A program made the translations under genes and the position numbers. DNA of 64,000 nucleotides, taken from IMG/VR virus record IMGVR_UViG_3300038360_000413, one strand, 5' to 3'. Within the stretch, counting starts at the first letter, position 1. Each line of letters starts with the position of its first letter. Below are positions 7,299-64,000 of this stretch, piece after piece. Origin of the DNA: a virus (lineage: Duplodnaviria > Heunggongvirae > Uroviricota > Caudoviricetes). The notes beneath the pieces were generated by a model that saw only the letters and a program-made list of their open reading frames with translations, was not told where the DNA came from and made no database searches.

Positions 7299-7496
7299 AT
7301 GATTAAGACGGAAAACGTATCTCAGATAGTAAAAGCTTGCGGACCTACTTGCAAGGCTGTACTAAAAGATATGCAAAATAAAAAATTCAACGAAGCTGAA
7401 GAGTTAGTAGGGGATGTAACATTGCCAAATGGACAAAAAGCTAGTGTTTATATAAATATAAGCATTACAGAAACAGGAAAAGGAGTCAAAACATAA
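7299..7496 (+). CDS. hypothetical protein
   Basis: 65-aa ORF. Confidence 0.35.
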   Translation: MIKTENVSQIVKACGPTCKAVLKDMQNKKFNEAEELVGDVTLPNGQKASVYINISITETGKGVKT

Positions 7497-7709
7497 ATGG
7501 GAATATGGTTTATAAGAATATTAGGTATTCTTATTTTCCTATTTTGTGCATGGTTAGTACTAAAACCAAAACGCACCAAAGAGGAAAAAGAAGCACGAAA
7601 ACTTGAAAAAGAACTTCGTACGGCTAGACGAAAGAAATTTAGCCTGGAAGTTATTTCAGAACTAGAAAGTAAACTAGAGTCAATCAAGAAAACAACAATA
7701 AAAAGATAA
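7497..7709 (+). CDS. small membrane protein
   Basis: N-terminal TM helix then charged coiled segment. Confidence 0.4.
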   Translation: MGIWFIRILGILIFLFCAWLVLKPKRTKEEKEARKLEKELRTARRKKFSLEVISELESKLESIKKTTIKR

Positions 7710-7719
7710 AGGATGCTAA

Positions 7720-8679
7720 ATGTATAGCAATCAACCAGAAACACCGTTACAGTTTTTAATACAGTATAAGAAGACAATTCTAATTGTTATATTCGCATTA
7801 TTTGCACTAACGGTAGTGTTAGATGGTACGTATACTGTCGATACGCAAGAACAAGCCGTAGTTACCAGATTTGGTAAGTATCTCACTACTACCGACCCAG
7901 GGCTGCATTTCAAAATACCGTTTGTAGATGATACATATCTGATAAAGGTAGAAAAGCAGTACACACAAGAGTTTGGATTTCGTAAAAACAATCTCCGACG
8001 CAGTGAAGGTCCTAAAAACAATATTCCAAAAGAATCATGGATGCTTACAGGTGATTTAAGTATAGCTGAAGTAAGATGGGTTATTCAATACCGAATCACT
8101 GATCCAGCTGCCTATTTGTTTAATTTTAGGCGACCAGAAGAGTTTATGCGGGATCTTTCAGAAATGGATATGAGAACTTTGGTGGGAGATAGATCCTTCC
8201 ACGAGGCAACTCAGAGAGATCGAGCTGCAATGAGTGTTGAAGCTACTAACAACATGTATAAGTACATGACTAAGTACAATATGGGATTGGAAGTAAACAA
8301 TGTACAAATACATGAATCCTTACCTCCTCAACCTGTTATGGCCTCCTACAATGATGTAAATGTTGCCAAACAAGAGCAAGAGACACTTATCAACGAAGCC
8401 AGACAGCAGTATAATAAAATTATCCTAGAAGTAAAGGGACAAGCAAAGGCTAAGATAAATGATGCAAAAGGTTATGCTGCTCAAAGGGTAAACAATGCAA
8501 AGGGTGACGTAGCTGCATTTATGAAACTAGAAGCGGAGTATTTAAAAGCTCCAGAAATAACAAAGCAACGACTATACTTAGAGGCCATGGATAATATACT
8601 CGCTGGCGCTGTAATAAAGGTTGTTGATGAAGATCTTCAAAGTATTTTACCACACCTAAGTTTAGATGGAGGAAGATAA
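7720..8679 (+). CDS. hflK: SPFH/band-7 protein, HflK-like
   Basis: N-terminal TM, then TQEQAVVTRFGKY...GLHFKIPF band-7 core and C-terminal coiled coil. Confidence 0.7.
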   Translation: MYSNQPETPLQFLIQYKKTILIVIFALFALTVVLDGTYTVDTQEQAVVTRFGKYLTTTDPGLHFKIPFVDDTYLIKVEKQYTQEFGFRKNNLRRSEGPKNNIPKESWMLTGDLSIAEVRWVIQYRITDPAAYLFNFRRPEEFMRDLSEMDMRTLVGDRSFHEATQRDRAAMSVEATNNMYKYMTKYNMGLEVNNVQIHESLPPQPVMASYNDVNVAKQEQETLINEARQQYNKIILEVKGQAKAKINDAKGYAAQRVNNAKGDVAAFMKLEAEYLKAPEITKQRLYLEAMDNILAGAVIKVVDEDLQSILPHLSLDGGR

Positions 8680-9616
8680 AATGTTAAAGAAAATCATTAT
8701 TACAATTATCGGATTTCTTGCCCTTACTGTCGCGTATACCGGAGCATTCACAGTGCTGGAAACGGAACAAGGTGTTATATTACAGTTTGGTAAGGTTATC
8801 AGACAAGTAGATACTGCAGGATTTCATTGGAAATTGCCTTTCATACAAAGCTTTGAAGTAATGGAAAAAAGAAAGCTTGAGTGGGACGGACCACCAACAC
8901 AAATCCCAACTGCAGACAATAAAGTGATATTAGTAGATACCTTTGCAAGATATAAGATCACAAATCCAAAAAGATACTACAAAGCACTTAGAACCGAGCA
9001 ACGAACATTGGCAAAACTAAGTGAAGTTATCAAAGGAGCGAATATTAATGTGGTATCTTCCAGATCATTGGGAGAAGTGGTGAGAAACTCCGACAGACAG
9101 ATGCTGTTGAATTCAGAGGAAACCGAAGACGCAACTATGATGGATTCCAAAGGAACGGTTCAAGCTAAAGGAGCACGTGGTGTAATTCGTGACGAGATAT
9201 TTGAAAAAGTCAACACGATGTTAACAACTCTTGATCTTGGTATAGAACTTGTCAATCTGGAAATTAAAAGAACCTCGTATGTAGCGTCACTGCAGCCTAG
9301 TGTTTTCAAAAGGATGATTTCTGAACAGAATCGAATTGCTGAGAAATATCGTGCTGAAGGCCAGGGACAAAATACCGCTATTCGAAGTCTTATTGACAGA
9401 GATGAGAAAGAAATATTGTCTGAAGCATACAAAAACGCAAAAGACATCACAGGAGCGGCAAACGCAAGTGCAACAAAAATCTATGCCGAATCCTACGAAC
9501 AAAATCCAGATTTTTATGCTTTCTTAAAGTCATTAGAGCTTTATGAAAACACGCTTTCTGGACAGGAATTTATTTTATCAACGAAACATTCGTTTCTGCG
9601 ATATTTAGATAACTAA
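8666..9616 (+). CDS. hflC: SPFH/band-7 protein, HflC-like
   Basis: TM then ETEQGVILQFGKV...GFHWKLPFIQ core; paired with the upstream HflK-like gene. Confidence 0.7.
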   Translation: MEEDKMLKKIIITIIGFLALTVAYTGAFTVLETEQGVILQFGKVIRQVDTAGFHWKLPFIQSFEVMEKRKLEWDGPPTQIPTADNKVILVDTFARYKITNPKRYYKALRTEQRTLAKLSEVIKGANINVVSSRSLGEVVRNSDRQMLLNSEETEDATMMDSKGTVQAKGARGVIRDEIFEKVNTMLTTLDLGIELVNLEIKRTSYVASLQPSVFKRMISEQNRIAEKYRAEGQGQNTAIRSLIDRDEKEILSEAYKNAKDITGAANASATKIYAESYEQNPDFYAFLKSLELYENTLSGQEFILSTKHSFLRYLDN

Positions 9617-32785: not shown

Positions 32786-32859
32786 GCGCGAGTAGTTCTA
32801 GCGGCTAGAACAGGAGATTCTAAATCTCTGTGTCGCGGGTTCAAGTCCCGCCTCGCGCA
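32786..32859 (+). tRNA. suppressor tRNA, anticodon CTA (reads UAG amber)
   Basis: Canonical 75-nt cloverleaf: acceptor GCGCGAG/CTCGCGC, D-stem GTTC/GAAC, anticodon stem GGAGA/TCTCT, loop TTCTAAA, T-arm GCGGG-TTCAAGT-CCCGC. Confidence 0.7.
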
Positions 32860-32870
32860 CATAAAATTAA

Positions 32871-36758: not shown

Positions 36759-36830
36759 AGCAAGCGGTTGCGGGTTCGAGTCCCGTCACCATCTTCGGGT
36801 GGTGTAGCTCAATTGGTAGAGCTCTTAATC
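36759..36830 (+). ncRNA. permuted tRNA-like module U1
   Basis: T-arm GCGGG-TTCGAGT-CCCGT, CACCATC-TTCG-GGTGGTG closed acceptor, D-arm GCTC-AATTGGTA-GAGC. Confidence 0.45.
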
Positions 36831-37138
36831 CAACTGTCGTGATTTCCAAACACCCTTTTACTAGATCGTTTAATAAGTACGCTTCGTACTTAGAGATACT
36901 TGCAAAAGATCTTCAACGTAAAGAACTTCTCTTCGATGTCCTGACGGGACATCAGAGAAATTCACAAAGACCTCGTACAAACCCCGGCAACCAGGACTTT
37001 TCCTTCCAGATTCATGAACTCTCTACGAGTGTCCATCAAATCGTTACAGGAAACTACCTGGTGCCAGCTTTGTACATAGCCTTTTAGTAGTAAACAAATT
37101 TCGTTTGGCTATTTATAAACTTCCTTCTATAAACGCAA

Positions 37139-43369: not shown

Positions 43370-43750
43370 GGGGGCGCCCGGTATCGATTATTATACGACG
43401 CGAGAATGGCTCAAGCAGAGTTATTGGCTTAACCAATTAAAACAAACAACTGGCAAAACGCAGTTCGCATTAGCGGCGTAAAGTAACATTTACGGTTATC
43501 GCTCACGTTCTTCTTCTTGACTCCGATAGTTCTGAAGAGCGTCATTTATCGGATCTGTCCAACTGTTTGGGGACGAATAAATAAAGGCACAGCGTTCCAA
43601 AGGTAAAGGGAAGTACGATAACTAATAATAGAGCTCCCGAGATCATTTGTTCTTTTGATTACCTCGTAAACATTGCAAAAGAAATAAGCTTGTAAACAAC
43701 CACCTTGATACTATAATAAGACGGGAGTTCGACTCTCCCCGCCTCCACCA
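43370..43750 (+). ncRNA. ssrA: tmRNA (SsrA)
   Basis: 5' GGGGGCG pairs with CGCCTCC 375 nt downstream, followed by A-CCA. T-arm GGGAG-TTCGACT-CTCCC. Internal tag reading frame GGC AAA ACG CAG TTC GCA TTA GCG GCG TAA (..KTQFALAA*) at 43452-43481. Confidence 0.8.
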
Positions 43751-56709: not shown

Positions 56710-57861
56710 ATGACAACTCAATTAGACAAATTTAAAAACGTAGAAAAACAACTAAACTCCTATTTCGTAGAAAGATTAGACGAAATTAGAGGATTGACAT
56801 TAGCACTATTGTCACAAAATAATGTGCTATATTTGGGACCTCCGGGAATATCTAAATCTTATTTAGTTAAAGCATGGTCTATGTGTATACAAGGTGCGAA
56901 CTACTTCGAACATTTGCTTACAAAATTTACAGTACCAGATGAACTTGCAGGACCTTTTTCACTAAGTGGATTAGAGAATGACAAGTTTATTAGAAATACT
57001 ACAAACATGCTCCCGGAGGCTCACATTGCTTTTCTAGACGAAATCTGGAAAGGAAATAGTGGGGTTCTAAACTTCTTATTAAAATTAGCAAACGAACGCA
57101 CCTTCTTTAATAATGGTGAAGAATGTGAAACTCCAATCTTAACAATAGTAGGAGCTTCAAACGAAATACCAGAGGACGATGACAACTTAGAAGCTTTACA
57201 GGATCGATTTATTATAAAGTTTATGGTAAAAGCAATCCAGGAACAGGAAAATTTTATTAAGATGGTATCAAGTGATGATTTTGTCGCAGAGACCTTCTTA
57301 ACTTTAAATGACATAGAAGAAGCACATACGCAAATTGCAAAAGTAAAAATGCCAAAAGAAATGTCAGAATTATTGTATGAAATTAAAGTAGAATTGAAAA
57401 ACGACGAGATAGTAGTTACCGACAGAACTCTAAAAAAAGCAGTTAACATTTTAAAATCCGAAGCTTGGCTAGACGGCTCTAAAGAGGTCAACGAAGATCA
57501 CTTTGATTGTTTGCAACATGTTCTTTGGACTGATCCAGATCACTCTCAAAAAACTGCAACAAAGTTATTTGGATTAGTAGATCCAGCACGCAGCAAGATG
57601 CTTGCAATAATGGATGATTGCAAAGATTTGTTCGCCGATTTAAGTAAAAAGAAAAAAGCGGAAACCAAAGAAGATTTACAAGAAATCATGGAAGGAATAG
57701 TTAAACTAAAAGCTGCTAAAGTAAGACTTACTGAGTTGTACAAAGAAGCAGTAAAAGCAAAAAACAGAAAGAAACAGCAAAAGACGGCTGAGCAAATGAT
57801 TAAACAAGTAAATGTTATGGTTGGAAAACTTGCTTCGTATGTTGGGTTTGATGATGTATGA
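56710..57861 (+). CDS. MoxR-like AAA+ ATPase
   Basis: Walker A LGPPGISKS, Walker B AFLDEIWK, MoxR-like length. Confidence 0.65.
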   Translation: MTTQLDKFKNVEKQLNSYFVERLDEIRGLTLALLSQNNVLYLGPPGISKSYLVKAWSMCIQGANYFEHLLTKFTVPDELAGPFSLSGLENDKFIRNTTNMLPEAHIAFLDEIWKGNSGVLNFLLKLANERTFFNNGEECETPILTIVGASNEIPEDDDNLEALQDRFIIKFMVKAIQEQENFIKMVSSDDFVAETFLTLNDIEEAHTQIAKVKMPKEMSELLYEIKVELKNDEIVVTDRTLKKAVNILKSEAWLDGSKEVNEDHFDCLQHVLWTDPDHSQKTATKLFGLVDPARSKMLAIMDDCKDLFADLSKKKKAETKEDLQEIMEGIVKLKAAKVRLTELYKEAVKAKNRKKQQKTAEQMIKQVNVMVGKLASYVGFDDV

Positions 57862-59366
57862 GACGTATAGATCATAAATTTTATTTAAAAAGAATTAAGA
57901 ATTCTAAATACACAATCAAGCACGATAATTTTGATTTGATAAATTTTCAACAATTGATAAGTGTTAATCCTGAGATGACTAAAGAATTTCTGCTTATGAA
58001 AGATGAATACCCACAGATGCAGGAATTACAACAGGATATTTTTAATTCATTATATAAATACAACCCAACAAAGTTAAAAGACCATGAAATCAATTACGAT
58101 TATTGGCTCAATGCTAACGTAATGGATGCTATTATGAAAAGTAAGCAGTACAAAGAGCTTAGAAGCTTAACCAGATTGGATAAGTTAAATTCCGCAACGG
58201 GAACAAAAATATTATCCACAGAAGCCAAAGATATAATAGAAAATATTCAAGAACGAAGTAAAAAAGCAATGGAAGCTGCGCAACAAGCATATCTTACTGC
58301 TAAGCAACTTGGCGGCAGTGGTAAAAGCACTAAAGCCCAAGGTGGAGAACAACTAACACTTACAGAAGCTATCGAGCGATTACGAGAAGCTGAAAAAGAA
58401 CTTAAAAGTAAGTTAATGACTCCAAAAGAACAGAGGGTAATGGCTCGTGCACTTACTACAGTGGTAAGCAAAACAAAAGAGTCTTCGGATTTAATAACAG
58501 ATTGGGGTTTACAACAATCAGACTCATTTACACGTGTAGGATATCAAGAACAGCTACAGCTAATAAAAGAGTTACAAGAAAATCCAAAACTACGAGCAAT
58601 TGCAGCTCTTATGGGTAGATATAAAAGAATGATTTTAGCTCAAAAACATACTAAAATCAAAAGAGGTTCTGATAGCCTATATGACATTACCTTAGGCAAT
58701 GACCTGGGAAAAGTTATACCTTCAGAAGCTATGAAATTGAAAAACCCCATAACTCGGAAAGTGTTTATTAAGCAATACTATGAAAAGAGTTTACTGCAAC
58801 ACGAATATGAAGGAAAAGTAAAGAAGCATAAAGGAGCTATAGCTATAGCTATCGATGAATCAGGCTCTATGGACGGAGATAAAGAAATTTGGGCAAAAGC
58901 GTTAGCACTTGGTTTAATGGAAATTGCCAGAATGCAAAAAAGAAATCTATTTATAGTACATTTTAATGCAAACGATAAAGAAGTACTACGAGTAGATACA
59001 TTTCTAAAAACCGATCCCTATGACATAAACAAAGTTATCGATTGTGCCACTTATTTTGCTTCAGGAAGCACTAGATTCAGTCCAGCATTAGATTTGTGCC
59101 GAGATCGAATAAACCTGGAAACAGAGTTTTCTACAGCAGATATAATTTTAATCACAGATGGCTCATCCGCAGTTCTTCCAGAATGGGCGACTGCCTTTAA
59201 CACATGGAAAAAAGAAAAAAAAGTTAATACTTATGGAGTAATAATTGATTTCGGATATAGCACAAAAACTGCTATAAAAGATTTTATAGATGACATAACA
59301 CGTATGTCTTCTTTTACTTCAAAAGAAAAAGATCAATTTATGTTCAAAATGATGAACAATTTGTAA
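57858..59366 (+). CDS. vWA-domain protein (MoxR partner type)
   Basis: MIDAS motif AIDESGSMDG in the C-terminal third; gene overlaps the AAA+ stop. Confidence 0.6.
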   Translation: MRRIDHKFYLKRIKNSKYTIKHDNFDLINFQQLISVNPEMTKEFLLMKDEYPQMQELQQDIFNSLYKYNPTKLKDHEINYDYWLNANVMDAIMKSKQYKELRSLTRLDKLNSATGTKILSTEAKDIIENIQERSKKAMEAAQQAYLTAKQLGGSGKSTKAQGGEQLTLTEAIERLREAEKELKSKLMTPKEQRVMARALTTVVSKTKESSDLITDWGLQQSDSFTRVGYQEQLQLIKELQENPKLRAIAALMGRYKRMILAQKHTKIKRGSDSLYDITLGNDLGKVIPSEAMKLKNPITRKVFIKQYYEKSLLQHEYEGKVKKHKGAIAIAIDESGSMDGDKEIWAKALALGLMEIARMQKRNLFIVHFNANDKEVLRVDTFLKTDPYDINKVIDCATYFASGSTRFSPALDLCRDRINLETEFSTADIILITDGSSAVLPEWATAFNTWKKEKKVNTYGVIIDFGYSTKTAIKDFIDDITRMSSFTSKEKDQFMFKMMNNL

Positions 59367-59376
59367 GAAAACGTCA

Positions 59377-59551
59377 CAGTTATAGTAATAGCAACGTATG
59401 CGCAAGTATATTAAACAAGTGCGAATCGTACTTGACAGCTAAAGTAATAAATCAACAAAGCAGGACTGATCCTGAAGCAAGCTTCAGGCCGTCTAAAGAC
59501 GGCGGAACGGGCTATGGAGCCTATCCGACGTCACATGTATAACTGCATTAA
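59377..59551 (+). ncRNA. candidate retron msr/msd ncRNA region
   Basis: Inverted repeats CAGTTATA (59377) and TATAACTG (59538) flank perfect hairpins CCTGAAGC-AA-GCTTCAGG and GCCGTC-TAAA-GACGGC, immediately upstream of the RT gene. Confidence 0.45.
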
Positions 59552-59563
59552 TCACAGAAAAAA

Positions 59564-60484
59564 ATGAACTTATATGAACTATTGGAAACGACTAAAGAGC
59601 AATTAGAAACAATACTTGCTAACAAACATGAACATTATAAATCGTTTCCTATCGCCAAATCAAGTGGCAAATTAAGATGGTTAGATGCTCCTAGCGAGGA
59701 GTTGAAAGCCATACAATCTCAGTTACTAAGAAAAGTGTTTTACAACTTTGCCCCGCATTCAGCCGCTGTAGGTTTTAGAGTGGGCATAGGAGTGCGAGAT
59801 GGCGCCGAAAGACACTTAGGAAACAAAACGTTACTATGTATGGATTTGAAAGACTTTTTCAATTCTATTACATATAATAACGTCATCAAATTACTTTATT
59901 TTCTGACAGATAAACTAAAGAAACACATACCAGAATGGACATACACAGCAGATGACATTGAAACAATGGCAAAGCTGGTTACATACCACAAAGCACTACC
60001 ACAAGGAGCGCCGACAAGTCCAGCTTTGGCTAATTTAGTTTGTTGGAAACTAGATCAAGAGCTAGAAAGACTAGCAAAAGAAAATTCCCTAATATATACT
60101 AGATATGCAGATGATCTGGCATTCAGTCACAAGGACAGTAAATATGACATTCATCCCTTAATTGAAACAATTACAAAACTTATAGAGGGTGATGAGGTAA
60201 CTAATCTACTAGTTAATACCAAGAAAACACGCATTACTAGACCACATCGACGTATGACAGTCACAGGTGTAGTAATAAATGATAAGCTTAGTTTAGCTAA
60301 AAGCTTTAGAAAAAACTTAAGAGCTAGAATTCATAATATTAAAAAATCAGGTATTACAATATCTGAAAAAGAATCAGAAGTAATTAGAGGTCATGTAGAG
60401 TGGATATACTCAATAAATCCCCAAGAGGGACAAAAATTCCGTCAGGCCTTCTCCGGCATTTCAAAGGAGTCCCAGACGACTTAA
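59564..60484 (+). CDS. reverse transcriptase, retron-type
   Basis: RT motifs LPQGAPTSPALANL (QGxxxSP), YTRYADDLAFS (YADD), and retron-typical VTG (RMTVTGVVIND); 306 aa. Confidence 0.75.
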   Translation: MNLYELLETTKEQLETILANKHEHYKSFPIAKSSGKLRWLDAPSEELKAIQSQLLRKVFYNFAPHSAAVGFRVGIGVRDGAERHLGNKTLLCMDLKDFFNSITYNNVIKLLYFLTDKLKKHIPEWTYTADDIETMAKLVTYHKALPQGAPTSPALANLVCWKLDQELERLAKENSLIYTRYADDLAFSHKDSKYDIHPLIETITKLIEGDEVTNLLVNTKKTRITRPHRRMTVTGVVINDKLSLAKSFRKNLRARIHNIKKSGITISEKESEVIRGHVEWIYSINPQEGQKFRQAFSGISKESQTT

Positions 60485-60567
60485 TAATTGAACCAGCACT
60501 TCTGACACAATATTTAAATGAAATTACATATTTAGATAAAATAACTACTACTACCAACTATGGATGT

Positions 60568-61044
60568 ATGATTCCGAGAGCTCCTATGTTTGCCTACTTT
60601 GGAAAAAAGAATGGTGACAAGATGAGAAAATGGATAACACAATATACCCCTATTATACAAAAACTTCAAAAAGAGGAATTAAGAATTTACTCTGCAGGAT
60701 GTATAGGAATAGGAACGACAACACCTTCACCTTCACTTGCTTTACATGTTTATAATCCAAATACTGGTAATTATTCTTTAATGTACCCAGTAGTTTGGTA
60801 TCCGGTATATTTCGAAGCTTTTAAGTATAAAAAGAGAAACTGCACAGCTGTAAGTATTGCGTTTCCTATAAAAATGCTAAAGCAGAAAATTTCATACACT
60901 CCCGGATATTACTATTTAAAAAAGCCGAAAGAGATAAGGATAAGTCGATTAGTAGTTACAAATAAAACAGAAGTGGTTCGTAAACAAATAATACAACTAT
61001 TGAAAGAAGCTAACAGTTTCTTTCTAACAAATAGCCAAAATTAA
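60568..61044 (+). CDS. hypothetical protein with GCIGIGTTTPSPSLALHV motif (possible retron accessory/effector)
   Basis: First ATG after the RT stop within the 60400 ORF frame; motif shared with 6302 and 9797 ORFs. Confidence 0.35.
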   Translation: MIPRAPMFAYFGKKNGDKMRKWITQYTPIIQKLQKEELRIYSAGCIGIGTTTPSPSLALHVYNPNTGNYSLMYPVVWYPVYFEAFKYKKRNCTAVSIAFPIKMLKQKISYTPGYYYLKKPKEIRISRLVVTNKTEVVRKQIIQLLKEANSFFLTNSQN

Positions 61045-61148
61045 CTCATAACTAAGGAGGCATAGTATGAATCGAATACTAAAAGTATTCGGTCTATCTA
61101 TAGCTTACATAACGGTAAAAGTACTGGAAAAAATGATACGACAAAGTT

Positions 61149-61418
61149 TTGAGAAAATGGCAACAGATAAAAAACAGGAACAAAAACAGAATGGCGGAAC
61201 ACTTTAAGATCACTTTGATTACAGGAAAAAAGCAAAGTGAAAATCGCATTCTATATGTAAAAGCAGGACAAGATGATTCGCACGACGGGATCATTCATGC
61301 TTTAAATATAGGACGAAAGATAAGAGGTACTGTTAAAATGATAGTACCTATAGATTACAAAGAATATATGTTAGGAGTAAGTAGAAAGCACTCACCGGAG
61401 TATCCTTTCATATACTAA
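61149..61418 (+). CDS. hypothetical protein
   Basis: 89-aa ORF. Confidence 0.35.
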   Translation: MRKWQQIKNRNKNRMAEHFKITLITGKKQSENRILYVKAGQDDSHDGIIHALNIGRKIRGTVKMIVPIDYKEYMLGVSRKHSPEYPFIY

Positions 61419-61431
61419 TCATTACTAAAAA

Positions 61432-62166
61432 ATGCCTAATGCGTTTACTCGAAATCAAAAAACTATATTATCAATAGATTTCGCACGTAAAAACACATGT
61501 ATGCAAACATGTGAGTATTGCTATGTTGATAATATGGAGCGCATATATCCAGCCTACTTAGGAAAAGTAGAAAGGAATAACGCAATGGCAACTGAAAACC
61601 CGAGTAAATTTGCAAAACAGATAAACGAAGAATACCATAAGGCAAGAAGAAGTAATAGTAAACAACTATTACCACTAAACAAACTACCCATAAGAATATA
61701 CGGTTCAGGAGATTACATTTCCCAACATTTTGAATTTTTAAAACTACTAAAGTTTAAATTCTTTATTATCTCTAAAAACTTGACAAGACTCGATATGATT
61801 AGTCATATTAAACCTTTATTAGAACTAAATAATCTTACTAGTTTATTACTTAGTTTGGATAGTGTAAACAAGAAAAATTTTGAAAACATAAAGTCCCACT
61901 TAGGGCAAGACAAAGTAAAGTTATGTTTTACTGGATTACCAGCTGACTTCCTAGTATTGGAAGAAAACATAAAAGCGAAAGTTGATCCCTTTTTCAATAT
62001 AGGAAAGAGGAGAAAAGCTGATAAAGAGCTGGGACAGACGATCAAAGTCTCATGTCCAGCTGACAACGGAAAAATTCAATTGCAGGAAGCTTGTACAAAA
62101 TGTTCAAGATGTTGGAAATCTTCGGCAACGAAACCACCAAACTGGAATAAATTATGGCAAAGATAA
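61432..62166 (+). CDS. radical SAM protein
   Basis: CMQTCEYC = CxxxCxxC cluster near N-terminus. Confidence 0.55.
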   Translation: MPNAFTRNQKTILSIDFARKNTCMQTCEYCYVDNMERIYPAYLGKVERNNAMATENPSKFAKQINEEYHKARRSNSKQLLPLNKLPIRIYGSGDYISQHFEFLKLLKFKFFIISKNLTRLDMISHIKPLLELNNLTSLLLSLDSVNKKNFENIKSHLGQDKVKLCFTGLPADFLVLEENIKAKVDPFFNIGKRRKADKELGQTIKVSCPADNGKIQLQEACTKCSRCWKSSATKPPNWNKLWQR

Positions 62167-62366
62167 TTACAGAAATAACTGGAAATACCGTTATTACAGC
62201 AAAAGAAATAGATCGAATTTCGGCAGAGTTTCTTCAGATACATAATAGATGGTTGTTAAGACGCTTTAAACGTGACGGAACTTTGGCTAGGAAACTAGCA
62301 AAGAACTTGAAAAACTTAACAATACGTTATATTAAACAATCTTTAGACGAAAGAACAATGTCGTAA
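62154..62366 (+). CDS. hypothetical protein
   Basis: 70-aa ORF. Confidence 0.3.
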   Translation: MAKIITEITGNTVITAKEIDRISAEFLQIHNRWLLRRFKRDGTLARKLAKNLKNLTIRYIKQSLDERTMS

Positions 62367-62556
62367 AAAGAACTGATTTAGATATACGGTAGTGTTTCTT
62401 TATTAATTTAGAGAAACAAACAAATTCGTTTCGAATTTGAAATACCTATAAACATCAAACTGACCCTACGGGTTACTACCAACTGATGTTAGTAAATCAC
62501 AAATAGCGGGGACACTGTGTCCTCGCTATCTACACCCTTAACAAATTTAAAAAAAC

Positions 62557-62569
62557 TTGGTATAAGAAT
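62557..62569 (+). promoter_or_regulatory. promoter-like motif TTGGTATAAGAAT
   Basis: Third copy, at the start of a 1.2-kb ORF-free region. Confidence 0.4.
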
Positions 62570-62599
62570 CTTGTTCTTTAGACGCTTCCTAATTTTTAG

Positions 62600-63600
62600 G
62601 ATAGAAGTATGATTCGTATTTCAAGGTATGATAAATAATACCAAAAACAACAGAATATGCTAGTCTCTCCACTGGTGAGGTCGCGGCCTGTCCCGAACAG
62701 TTACACCATGGTTTACCTCGACGTGACACAAATGTTACAATAATTATTTTATAATTATTCGCAAAATATGAATCACTCCAAGAAACCAGGTTTCACTCTT
62801 CGACAATGTCAGGACTACACAGATCCTGCACCAGTTACGCACTAGATATTGCTGACTATAGTAAAGAACATAAAAAATCTTAGGTAAACGACTTGCAGTT
62901 TACTAGTCTTTTACAAGACAAACAATTACGATACGTATTTGTATAAATACAACCAAACATTCCACTGGTCTAACCCTGACGCGCGAACACCCCTTCAAAA
63001 ATTCGAATGGGTGTCCCCGTCTTACAGGAGTAAGACCCCAGGGAATGTTTTTCCTCGCCCCCCTCAAAATTTGAGGAGGCCTCGATCGGAGGTGACGTGC
63101 ACGCTCATCTAGAGGTACCCGGGTTTTCGCACTGCAGCTCACGGCGCGCCGGCAACGTTGATAGGTATCGATGGGATACCGACTGGAAAACCGTCTGCCG
63201 AAAATTCCTAACTAAGGCTGAAGAATAAGTTCCCCCTGGAACTCGCATGCTAGTAACGAAGCGAGCCCTCCCAGAAGGAGACCCACAAATTCTAGACGGC
63301 GCCAGCTGAAAACTAGACGACGCCGAGCTGACCTGGGAGACGGAGATGACGCCGTCGGAGTCCCGAGCGCTTAAGTGAGACGTAAGTTGCCTTCGAAGAG
63401 ACGGCACTTCCAGTGCGCAAGGATCCATGGTCCCTTGGCCGGGAAAAACCACGCACTCTTTTCTCCAGCTAGAATTCCGAACAAACCAGCAGGAAGAACT
63501 GAGGCCTAAGGGTTCCTGGTTAATGCGCAGTCCGCGGGTCCGGCAGCTAGCTGCGGGAGTCACGGGAACGCAGAAAATAAATTTTGTGCAAGTTGAATAT
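62600..63600 (+). ncRNA. large ORF-free region, strongly GC-rich in its 3' 600 nt: candidate large structured ncRNA
   Basis: No credible ORF; GC sharply above genome average from about 62980; many GC helices (e.g. GGGTCCGGCAGCTAGCTGCGGGAGTC); overlapping both-strand ORFs with biased composition look spurious. Confidence 0.35.
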
Positions 63601-63726
63601 TACCGATTTTAGAAGGAGACACCCGTTTCCTTTTTTTTATCTTAAAAATTATAGGAACATTGACTTATGTTATGGATATAATGTATATTAAAGTATAGAC
63701 TATTTTTAATAAACCAGAAAATTTAA

Positions 63727-64000
63727 TGAACAAACCTAAACTTTTTGTTTGGTGTGACTTTTTATGTCCTACAGGCTTCGGAAATGTTGCCATGAACTTA
63801 CTCGAAGATATGTACAAAGACTATGATGTGTCTATTCTAGGGATCAACTATGACGGAACAAAACGATACGATACAAGTAAATATTTTGTTTACCCAATAA
63901 CCAGAGCAGATCCTTTCGGATTTGAAAGACTTCCCCTTCTAATAAAAAAAGAACAGCCAGACAAAATACTTCTATTTCAAGATATTTTTAATATTGCAGG
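63727..64000 (+). CDS. hypothetical protein, 5' partial (runs off window)
   Basis: ATG at 63727 after a TTGACT...TATATT promoter-like element; open to window end. Confidence 0.35.

Follow-up and report, generated by a model that had tools for sequence, protein, structure and literature searches.

A retron-type reverse transcriptase with several candidate template RNAs at a conserved site in an uncultivated jumbo-phage clade

Retrons are seen as bacterial tripartite anti-phage systems, in which a reverse transcriptase (RT) works with a toxin effector and a single template RNA. What, then, would such an RT be doing in a phage? The question is raised by the DNA analyzed here, a 64,000-nt stretch of the IMG/VR virus record IMGVR_UViG_3300038360_000413 (Caudoviricetes), referred to below as the window, in which an RT gene follows the genes for a MoxR-type ATPase and a von Willebrand factor A (vWA) protein. 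A first-pass annotation, made by a model from the sequence alone, had read the locus as a retron-like cassette with a structured RNA upstream of the RT. Our results indicate that it is probably a genuine retron, fixed in a virus lineage and provided with several templates, in which no effector can be recognised.

The reverse transcriptase and its upstream RNA

The RT gene and the elements of the non-coding RNA that precedes it (ncRNA 1) are the following.

59377-59545, plus strand: retron ncRNA 1, 169 nt (fold, homology-anchored a1/a2, covariation and Ec86 landmarks)
59377-59384, plus strand: a1 of ncRNA 1, CAGTTATA, an 8-nt inverted repeat with a2
59385, plus strand: candidate branching G, the invariant G after a1
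59416-59434, plus strand: conserved hairpin of ncRNA 1, CAAGTGCG-AAT-CGTACTTG, with a YG-NNN-CG triloop
about 59435-59537, plus strand: msd region, with the invariant G 59537 directly before a2
59471-59488 and 59488-59503, plus strand: two perfect hairpins in the spacer, from a repeat search
59538-59545, plus strand: a2 of ncRNA 1, TATAACTG, pairing with a1
59564-60484, plus strand: retron-type RT, 306 aa (RVT_1, 6.7e-22; YADD, QGAPTSP and VTG motifs)

In PADLOC, the RT was matched by 67 retron RT models and all best matches were retron models. RT_XIII (1.1e-76), II-A (4.1e-71) and III-A (1.9e-69) came first, with XI and X close behind; since the values form a nearly flat series from 1e-76 to 1e-50, no clear retron type could be assigned. 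The 12 best matches in the PDB were likewise retron RTs (8e-38 to 6e-20), in the order Kva2 (8e-38), Ec86 (9e-36), Ec78, Ec67 and Ec83, and the best group II RT in this comparison reached 4e-11. Aligned directly with the Ec86 RT, the protein showed 31% identity over 296 aa (E = 3e-42), VTG falling on VTG.

Among 80 close homologues, D94, Y181, D183, D184, the QG.P.SP core, H84 and G235 were invariant. Region Y reads RRMTVTGVVIN, with T234 conserved in at least 90% of the homologues next to the invariant G235. Region X reads DGAERH and was aligned to NNATPH of Ec86: the H and the A are retained, a G stands in place of the N throughout, and beside the invariant H84 the conservation of G80 and A81 in the clade is 90% or more. 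Judged by its sequence, the RT is of the retron type and has the RT features set out by Mestre et al. 2020 (PMC7736814), save for the N-to-G change in region X.

Two other classes of RT were considered and rejected. A group II intron does not fit, as group II RTs lay 25 orders of magnitude behind retron RTs; further, no group II or other Rfam match was found around the RT, and the 306-aa protein has no maturase or endonuclease extension. A diversity-generating retroelement (DGR) was set aside because the best RT matches are retron RTs and the window holds neither a pair resembling a template and a variable repeat (TR/VR) nor a second copy of any ncRNA interior. The first-pass annotation had called a 306-aa RT with YADD, QGxxxSP and VTG motifs and no DGR template. 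The protein was found at 59564-60484, its retron character was borne out by the PADLOC, PDB and Ec86 comparisons, and no TR/VR-like copy was detected in the window; clustering with DGR or group II RTs, named at the time as the outcome that would speak against a retron, was not observed.

The RT gene is preceded by a 197-nt spacer (59367-59563), which folds into a structure closed by its terminal repeat, with a minimum free energy (MFE) of -52.5 kcal/mol (z = -4.2). Both the flanking repeat CAGTTATA/TATAACTG and the two perfect hairpins reported by the first-pass annotation were recovered. The check that it had suggested for this region gave a positive result for the fold and none for Rfam, where a model for such an ncRNA has not been shown to exist: at gathering thresholds only tRNAs and the transfer-messenger RNA (tmRNA) were detected in the whole window, and relaxed searches (E <= 10 around the RT, E <= 1 over 62200-64000) yielded chance-level matches only.

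Taken at this single locus, the 8-bp repeat was not significant (p of about 0.17 for the best constrained repeat in a 480-nt AT-rich stretch), and a homology-anchored test was therefore employed instead. Homologous loci, given L numbers here, were gathered by exact protein look-up and profile scans; the matches listed in a metagenome scan with the RT profile were mostly bacterial retrons. Upstream of the RT, the homologous loci carry a recurrent motif, ACAGTTATAG. With a1 placed by homology only, a G-preceded complement was present downstream in 11 of 11 loci, an outcome reached in 0-32 of 2000 shuffles for each locus and in 9 of 2000 for ncRNA 1 of the window. Where ACAGTTATAG varies, its partner co-varies, as in CAGTTCTA/TAGAACTG, GGCTATA/TATAGCT, GTAGTTATA/TATAACTAC, TAGTTTTA/TAAAACTA and TCAGTTACA/TGTAACTGA.

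An alignment of 24 RNAs gave a concordant picture. The inner seven a1/a2 pairs were formed in all 24, double-sided changes numbered 78 compared to 29.7 in shuffles, and the covariation value was 0.688, against 0.237 for shuffled alignments (0/500) and 0.11-0.22 for slid registers. A G directly past a1 was invariant (24/24), as was one directly ahead of a2. A YG-NNN-CG hairpin of 7-9 bp, with a triloop and an invariant apex, was located 13-65 nt past the G in every RNA; its cells were 88% paired, with 55 double-sided changes, while slid registers reached 32-46%. The msd of ncRNA 1, like that of ncRNA 3 described below, contains several hairpins and not one long stem; the ncRNA interiors in general are structured. 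The a1/a2 covariation, the invariant Gs and the conserved hairpin agree with the msr/msd-like RNA proposed in the first-pass annotation, and by this pattern of conservation 59377-59545 is a genuine msr-msd-like retron ncRNA.

In several relatives (L012, L093, L021, L022, L018 and L030), GC-rich hairpins followed by T-runs lie between a2 and the RT start, which suggests that a separate transcript, terminated there, also supplies the ncRNA and that the RT is expressed by read-through.

Additional ncRNAs and arrays

Is ncRNA 1 the only template? The landmarks of such RNAs were checked on Ec86 as a positive control. The Ec86 ncRNA sequence was a 100% match in 48 Escherichia coli genomes, between the retron effector and RT genes; in it, a1 TGCGCACCCTTA precedes a G, the hairpin is GGATGTTG-TTT-CGGCATCC, and a further G precedes TAAGGGTGCGCA. 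A triad (a1 then G, the YG-NNN-CG hairpin, G then a2) was used as a search pattern; when applied to the 5.2-kb E. coli locus, it returned the Ec86 ncRNA alone.

In L009 and L023, the vWA gene abuts the RT gene and leaves no space for an RNA upstream. Triad RNAs were present in both, and in most other loci, downstream of a gene for a GP88-family protein that lies past the RT; in L009 and L014, ncRNAs occur solely downstream. The corresponding region of the window contains the following elements.

62374-62499, plus strand: tentative retron-type ncRNA 2' (hairpin from the motif scan, a1/a2 by eye)
62374-62380 and 62493-62499, plus strand: a1 of ncRNA 2', TGATTTA, followed by G; a2, TAAATCA, preceded by AG
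62421-62439, plus strand: hairpin of ncRNA 2', CAAATTCG-TTT-CGAATTTG, a perfect motif hairpin
62572-62870, plus strand: retron-type ncRNA 2, 299 nt (z = -4.13 with a1/a2 closed)
62572-62580 and 62862-62870, plus strand: a1 of ncRNA 2, followed by G 62581; a2, preceded by AG
62604-62622, plus strand: hairpin of ncRNA 2, GAAGTATG-ATT-CGTATTTC, followed by a long imperfect msd stem
62889-63595, plus strand: retron-type ncRNA 3, 707 nt (z = -5.2)
62889-62897 and 63587-63595, plus strand: a1 of ncRNA 3, followed by G 62898; a2, preceded by G
62922-62942, plus strand: hairpin of ncRNA 3, ACAATTACG-ATA-CGTATTTGT

The predicted ncRNAs of the window thus comprise three well-supported ones and one that is tentative. 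Among 24 non-identical loci, at least one candidate was found in 23. Relatives have 1-6 per genome, up to six of them in tandem, and the arrays are located between vWA and RT, past GP88, or at both sites; their a1/a2 repeats reach 13-16 bp. Many genomes include one ncRNA with a 400-700-nt interior of 51-60% GC, and in the window the interior of ncRNA 3 is a GC island (54% GC vs. 33% for the genome). This island has no sequence similarity to the relatives, though GC-rich segments occupy the equivalent position. No coding signal was detected in the GC-rich interiors, where open frames stayed within shuffle expectation and no translated similarity was seen, and the ncRNA interiors have no copy and no meaningful complementarity elsewhere in the window. 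Even among relatives whose flanking genes are about 75% identical, the msd interiors could not be aligned.

It might be argued that the downstream RNAs are chance matches, unrelated structured RNAs or terminators, and that the retron is an ordinary one with a single template. The triad pattern was made by hand, 8-9-bp repeats occur often in AT-rich DNA, and an extended scan of the 64-kb window, which returned only ncRNA 2 and ncRNA 3 on the plus strand, gave four matches on the minus strand, one being the mirror image of the ncRNA 3 hairpin and three unrelated. These points are countered by a marked strand asymmetry (54 candidates on the RT strand vs. 8 on the opposite strand in the 24 loci), by the position past GP88, conserved in many loci with repeats of up to 15-16 bp, and by L009 and L014, whose only ncRNAs are downstream. 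Moreover, the unconstrained MFE fold of the 707-nt RNA closes a1/a2, and the counterpart a1/a2 of ncRNA 3 in L004, CGGCTTGCA/TGCAAGTCG, is homologous and has retained its pairing. We consider an explanation by chance highly improbable.

A loose search also picked up an element on the minus strand of the window (36780-36950), with a hairpin, TAAGTACG-AAG-CGTACTTA, and a 9-bp flanking inverted repeat; it lacks the A-then-G and G-then-T junctions and is probably due to chance. The largest arrays were those of L274 (= L025/L186), with six units between vWA and RT, and, past GP88, of L034 (five, 7345-8178) and L012 (four, 7693-8778); adjacent a2 and a1 in them occasionally overlap by a few bases. 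At least two tandem ncRNAs (TTA then G, a GCG-YTT-CGC hairpin, G then TAA) also precede the retron RT of L054 (4049-4552; IMGVR_UViG_3300037247_001602; also L281), an outgroup jumbo-phage contig with 38% identity in the beta subunit of RNA polymerase (RNAP-beta) and 32% in the RT, where the RT lies elsewhere in the genome. Arrays are therefore not confined to the clade of the window.

Fixation in the clade and the neighbouring genes

Is the retron a passenger or a resident of these genomes? RT homologues of 36-64% identity occupy an equivalent context in contigs of up to 220 kb, in which RNAP-beta (divergently oriented) is followed by small open reading frames (ORFs), MoxR, vWA, RT, small ORFs, GP88, a gene-free gap and a glycosyltransferase gene. 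Fixation was assessed on viral contigs retrieved by RNAP-beta alone. An RT was present at the equivalent site, just upstream of RNAP-beta, in 31 of 31 contigs whose RNAP-beta was at least 41% identical to that of the window; of the 47 with at most 40%, none had one, a single weak partial match aside. RT identity to the window tracked RNAP-beta identity (Spearman 0.72, Pearson 0.83, n = 28), and in a neighbour-joining (NJ) tree the context-verified RTs formed a group of 78 with no bacterial retron RT inside. The first-pass annotation had considered a captured system. This does not agree with an RT fixed at one site in a deep clade and co-diverging with RNAP-beta; the retron appears instead to be a vertically inherited, fixed-position module of an uncultivated jumbo-phage clade and not a recent capture.

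The genes and other features around the RT and its RNAs are listed below.

56710-57861, plus strand: MoxR-type AAA+ ATPase, 383 aa (bpMoxR 1.6e-49, AAA_5 3.8e-20, AAA_lid_8 1.4e-14)
57858-59366, plus strand: vWA protein, 502 aa (VWA_2 3e-6), with an intact metal ion-dependent adhesion site (MIDAS)
60400-61044, plus strand: fam6, a clade-specific ORFan of uncertain true start, candidate accessory protein
61067-61207, plus strand: 46-aa ORF overlapping fam4, with a strong Shine-Dalgarno sequence (AAGGAGG) and a hydrophobic N-terminus
61149-61418, plus strand: fam4, a small conserved ORF
61432-62166, plus strand: GP88-family protein with CxxxCxxC, radical-SAM-like (Pfam GP88 7.1e-10, weak Radical_SAM match)
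about 63611-63642, plus strand: hairpin and T-run resembling an intrinsic terminator, 16 nt past a2 of ncRNA 3

When the ORFs around 32 loci were clustered into families, no neighbour family besides the RT (32/32) was universal: MoxR was found in 26, vWA in 24, the glycosyltransferase in 23, fam4 in 22, fam6 in 20 and GP88 in 16. PADLOC detected no effector among seven neighbouring proteins, and no PADLOC or Pfam match to the partners of type XIII retrons (a winged-helix/SWIM protein and an accessory protein) was obtained among the neighbours.

The first-pass annotation had joined the MoxR-vWA pair and the retron into one cassette, and we asked whether they form a single functional system, with the ATPase and the vWA protein acting as effector, regulator or assembly chaperone of an RT bound to its multicopy single-stranded DNA (msDNA). 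The two genes overlap by ATGA (57858-57861) and are translationally coupled, as had been noted. MoxR also matches the PHROG 19600 ATPase (3.6e-79) and has no PADLOC match; in vWA, the MIDAS residues (DxSGS, T405 and D434) are invariant in 17 homologues. MoxR adjoins the RT in 26 of 32 loci and vWA in 24, the order MoxR, vWA, ncRNA, RT being kept down to about 32% vWA identity. In a vWA-anchored scan, the clade loci among the matches listed had an RT in 17 of 17 cases, and in the distant contigs L003, L071 and L191 an RT likewise lies 1-7 kb from the pair. Further, MoxR matches the bpMoxR family of MoxR-vWA ternary conflict systems, in which linkage to a DGR RT is frequent (Kaur et al. 2020, PMC7159879); apart from that study on DGRs, no paper linking retrons with MoxR or vWA was found in the literature.

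Against a functional link, the same scan returned at least 50 viral loci with the MoxR-vWA pair and no RT within 6 kb. The nearest GenBank relatives of vWA are 'chaperonin/cochaperone' proteins of Bacillus phage 0305phi8-36 (ORF063) and the Acidianus two-tailed virus, neither of which gave a match when the RT was searched by tblastn. Conversely, in six or more lineages of the clade (L013-16, L024, L026, L031 and L040), the RT directly adjoins RNAP-beta and MoxR-vWA is not next to it; three of these contigs, each longer than 200 kb, are missing from the best 80 MoxR loci, among which other clade contigs are present, and may carry a very divergent MoxR elsewhere. Moreover, the RT is of the retron type and the window has no TR/VR pair. 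A single system is very unlikely in our view, and the idea of one cassette was abandoned: MoxR-vWA is probably a chaperone-type syntenic neighbour common in large viruses and not a component of the retron.

A second possibility is a classical tripartite retron used for superinfection exclusion or competition, whose toxin would be fam6 or one of the small downstream proteins, held in check by RT-msDNA until a competitor perturbs the msDNA. The case for it centres on fam6, which covers the final 85 nt of the RT gene, including its stop codon (60400-60484), in the -1 frame and begins about 800-845 nt past the RT start, an equivalent operon position, in 20 of 32 loci. The overlap possibly reflects translational coupling or a programmed -1 frameshift fusion; no canonical slippery heptamer was seen there by eye. 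Being a fast-evolving ORFan, fam6 also resembles many conflict genes, and temperate phages do carry defence retrons, Ec86 lying between replication and portal genes of a P2-like prophage.

Several results argue against this. Twelve of the 32 loci have an intact RT and no fam6; in L023, L033 and L037, fam4 is missing as well. A patchy distribution is the norm for defence cargo, whereas the RT is at one site in all 31 clade members; classical retrons have one ncRNA and not an array; and no effector domain was recognised by Pfam, PADLOC or PHROG. In fam6 itself, which has no match in any of these three databases, only a C-terminal ...ECNRF..MYC block is well conserved, and the invariant E-W-I codons of the RT account for its conserved 'MD' start. 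Ten relatives were found among 1.84 billion representatives, and two and five homologues in other database searches; an AlphaFold2 model was unusable (mean predicted local distance difference test 38.5). The downstream ORF described in the first-pass annotation is present, while the GxIGIGTTxP motif ascribed to it is not a conserved one of the family and falls within a window-specific insertion. On balance, we judge a classical tripartite retron unlikely.

In 16 of the 32 loci, the GP88 gene separates the RT gene from the downstream ncRNA array. Conservation of the 46-aa ORF that overlaps fam4 is limited to L004 (63%), the closest relative. The terminator-like site after ncRNA 3 is the probable end of the transcription unit. 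Directly past it, a 23-25-nt AT-rich element (63626-63650) is identical in L004 and L013-15, amid flanks that cannot be aligned, and may serve the next gene block as a promoter or regulatory site; no second copy of the promoter-like element near 63642 exists in the window.

With regard to the window as a whole, it is AT-rich and large-phage-like (33% GC overall). RNAP-beta and a 1553-aa ORF are encoded on the minus strand immediately upstream of the MoxR-RT region; other genes include a T4-type RNA ligase and a NAMPT-like gene, and no virion or structural genes were found within the 64 kb. ARAGORN called 26 tRNA genes, within 17099-41293. One of these (32786-32860), 'Pyl' according to ARAGORN, has the anticodon CTA of an amber suppressor, and a tmRNA with the tag GKTQFALAA is located at 43370-43750. 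From the RT onward, one IMG/VR contig is 100% identical to the window. GenBank phages show no DNA similarity to it and include no close relative, with at most 34% identity in the RT (tblastn) and at most 30% in RNAP-beta. All ORFs, repeats, hairpins and RT motifs of the first-pass annotation were found in place, and its view of the source as a large phage is supported by the RNAP, the tRNA and tmRNA load and PHROG matches.

In three relatives, all on the minus strand, RNAP-beta genes contain in-frame TGA codons, three in L014 (1918-4260) and one each in L006 (945-3305) and L170 (1792-4116), which split the gene in standard-code gene calls. All of these codons align to conserved tryptophans, and some clade members therefore read TGA as tryptophan (code-4-like).

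Proposed function and comparison with known systems

How might such a retron work? By homology with Ec86 and by the general retron model (PMC7736814), a1 of each ncRNA would pair with a2 in the folded RNA, the conserved YG-NNN-CG hairpin would serve as the docking site of the RT, synthesis would start from the 2'-OH of the invariant G that adjoins the 3' end of a1, and the msd would be copied starting at the invariant G just 5' of a2. The products would be several distinct branched RNA-ssDNA molecules, one msDNA per ncRNA, among them possibly an msDNA of about 0.6 kb if the GC-rich interior were fully copied. In engineered arrays, a single RT serves tandem ncRNA units (PMC10370050).

While the RT and its RNA handles occur throughout, none of the protein partners does, and turnover of the msd interiors is very fast. 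We tentatively propose, for these reasons, that the msDNAs themselves are the functional output, as decoys or sensors directed against host defences or rival elements, and not the antitoxin of a toxin-retron pair; this stands at somewhat under an even chance. The presence of a virus-fixed, multi-template retron suggests that phages use ssDNA for their own purposes. A fuller version, in which the virus lineage has domesticated the retron as a core module and a natural array yields fast-evolving msDNAs (one of about 0.6 kb) that act as effectors, for instance as decoys or sponges for DNA-sensing defences, is speculative, and we hold it to be doubtful.

Alternatively, the RT could have been domesticated for phage DNA metabolism, its long cDNAs being used as primers for recombination or replication or as templates for the maintenance of genome ends. 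Core-gene behaviour (31/31 at a fixed site by the RNAP genes, with co-divergence) would fit such a role, as would the great length (400-700 nt) of the structured templates that many members carry. However, the msd interiors are unconserved even in close relatives, which would be odd for a cis-acting replication element, and they match nothing else in the window. GC skew has no inflection beyond that of gene orientation, which it merely follows, and the idea of a replication origin was rejected. We know of no DNA-metabolism role for any retron, and regard this one as improbable.

Several considerations weigh against a virus-fixed, multi-template retron that acts through its msDNAs. The window RT has GAXXH instead of NAXXH in region X. 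The a1/a2 helix of ncRNA 1 is only 8 bp long, and that of ncRNA 2' is only 7 bp and weakly supported. The helix and hairpin alignments were built by choosing partners for complementarity, so that their counts lean towards structure; the homology-anchored test, the strand control and the Ec86 positive control are three supports independent of these fitted alignments. Monophyly of the RT clade was obtained at the NJ level only, with a short stem and three borderline sequences outside, and the phage nature of the window has indirect grounds, namely the IMG/VR classification, the jumbo-phage-type RNAP, the tRNA and tmRNA load and the PHROG matches. Priming, branching and how far reverse transcription proceeds are argued by analogy, in particular for the 707-nt RNA; fam6 could be a classical effector, or an unlinked effector could be encoded elsewhere; and the decoy or sensor role is a weak proposition.

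The domestication reading, if true, would make this retron the first to work for a phage and not against one, the first without an effector and the first 'multitron' found in nature. Clade fixation, several templates and the lack of a recognisable effector would mean that an RT-msDNA module could function alone, on the virus side of the conflict. The loci also supply about 30 RT homologues and more than 50 mapped cognate ncRNAs, in which common short handles (a1-G, the YG-NNN-CG hairpin and G-a2) enclose interiors of about 50 to about 650 nt. Such tolerance bears on retron ssDNA production and on multiplexed genome editing, which are limited by template length and arraying.

Retrons in temperate phages (Ec86) and a retron-like RT in Staphylococcus jumbo phages were already known. 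Clade-wide fixation in phages, natural multi-ncRNA arrays with long GC-rich templates and the absence of an effector appear to be unreported in the literature searched; that search, which was incomplete and leaves priority uncertain, turned up neither phage-core retrons nor natural ncRNA arrays.

Of the defined systems, Ec86/Eco1 (type II-A, from an E. coli P2-like prophage) has an RT whose YADD, QGAPSSP and VTG align with those of the window RT, and an ncRNA immediately upstream of the RT, within a phage genome, with a1 ending in TTA then G, a triloop hairpin, and a G followed by the TAA that opens a2. It differs in having one ncRNA and a linked nucleoside-deoxyribosyltransferase-like effector, annotated 'retron St85 family effector', and in the NAXXH of region X, where the window RT has GAXXH. 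Further, Ec86 is accessory cargo of a temperate phage, whereas the window retron is clade-fixed, has several ncRNAs and no known effector. Type XIII (Mestre et al. 2020, PMC7736814) shares the RT-ncRNA core and gave, marginally, the best PADLOC model, RT_XIII; its winged-helix/SWIM partners and other typed effectors were not found beside the window RT. By its gene content, the window retron would fall outside the tripartite, known-effector scheme and fits no defined type.

The ternary conflict systems (PMC7159879) resemble the locus in that a MoxR of the bpMoxR family is coupled to a MIDAS vWA protein. By Pfam, however, no third, VMAP/beta-propeller effector is present among the immediate neighbours, and the RT of those systems is of the DGR type with a TR/VR pair, whereas the window has a retron-type RT and no such pair.

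Staphylococcus jumbo phages with multisubunit RNAPs also have a conserved retron-like RT (MarsHill gp206; bioRxiv 10.1101/2020.12.14.422802). These are lytic jumbo phages with a long adjacent non-coding region suspected of encoding an ncRNA, no DGR elements and no linked effector. In tblastn, Staphylococcus phage records, which may or may not belong to the MarsHill group, showed about 32% identity to the window RT. MarsHill gp206 differs in being 501 aa long, with a 200-aa N-terminal domain, and its ncRNA is undefined, whereas those of the window are mapped and multiple. Finally, multitrons (PMC10370050) likewise line up msr-msd units in tandem on one transcript, and a single RT copies each unit independently; they are synthetic and based on Ec86, whereas the arrays described here are natural.

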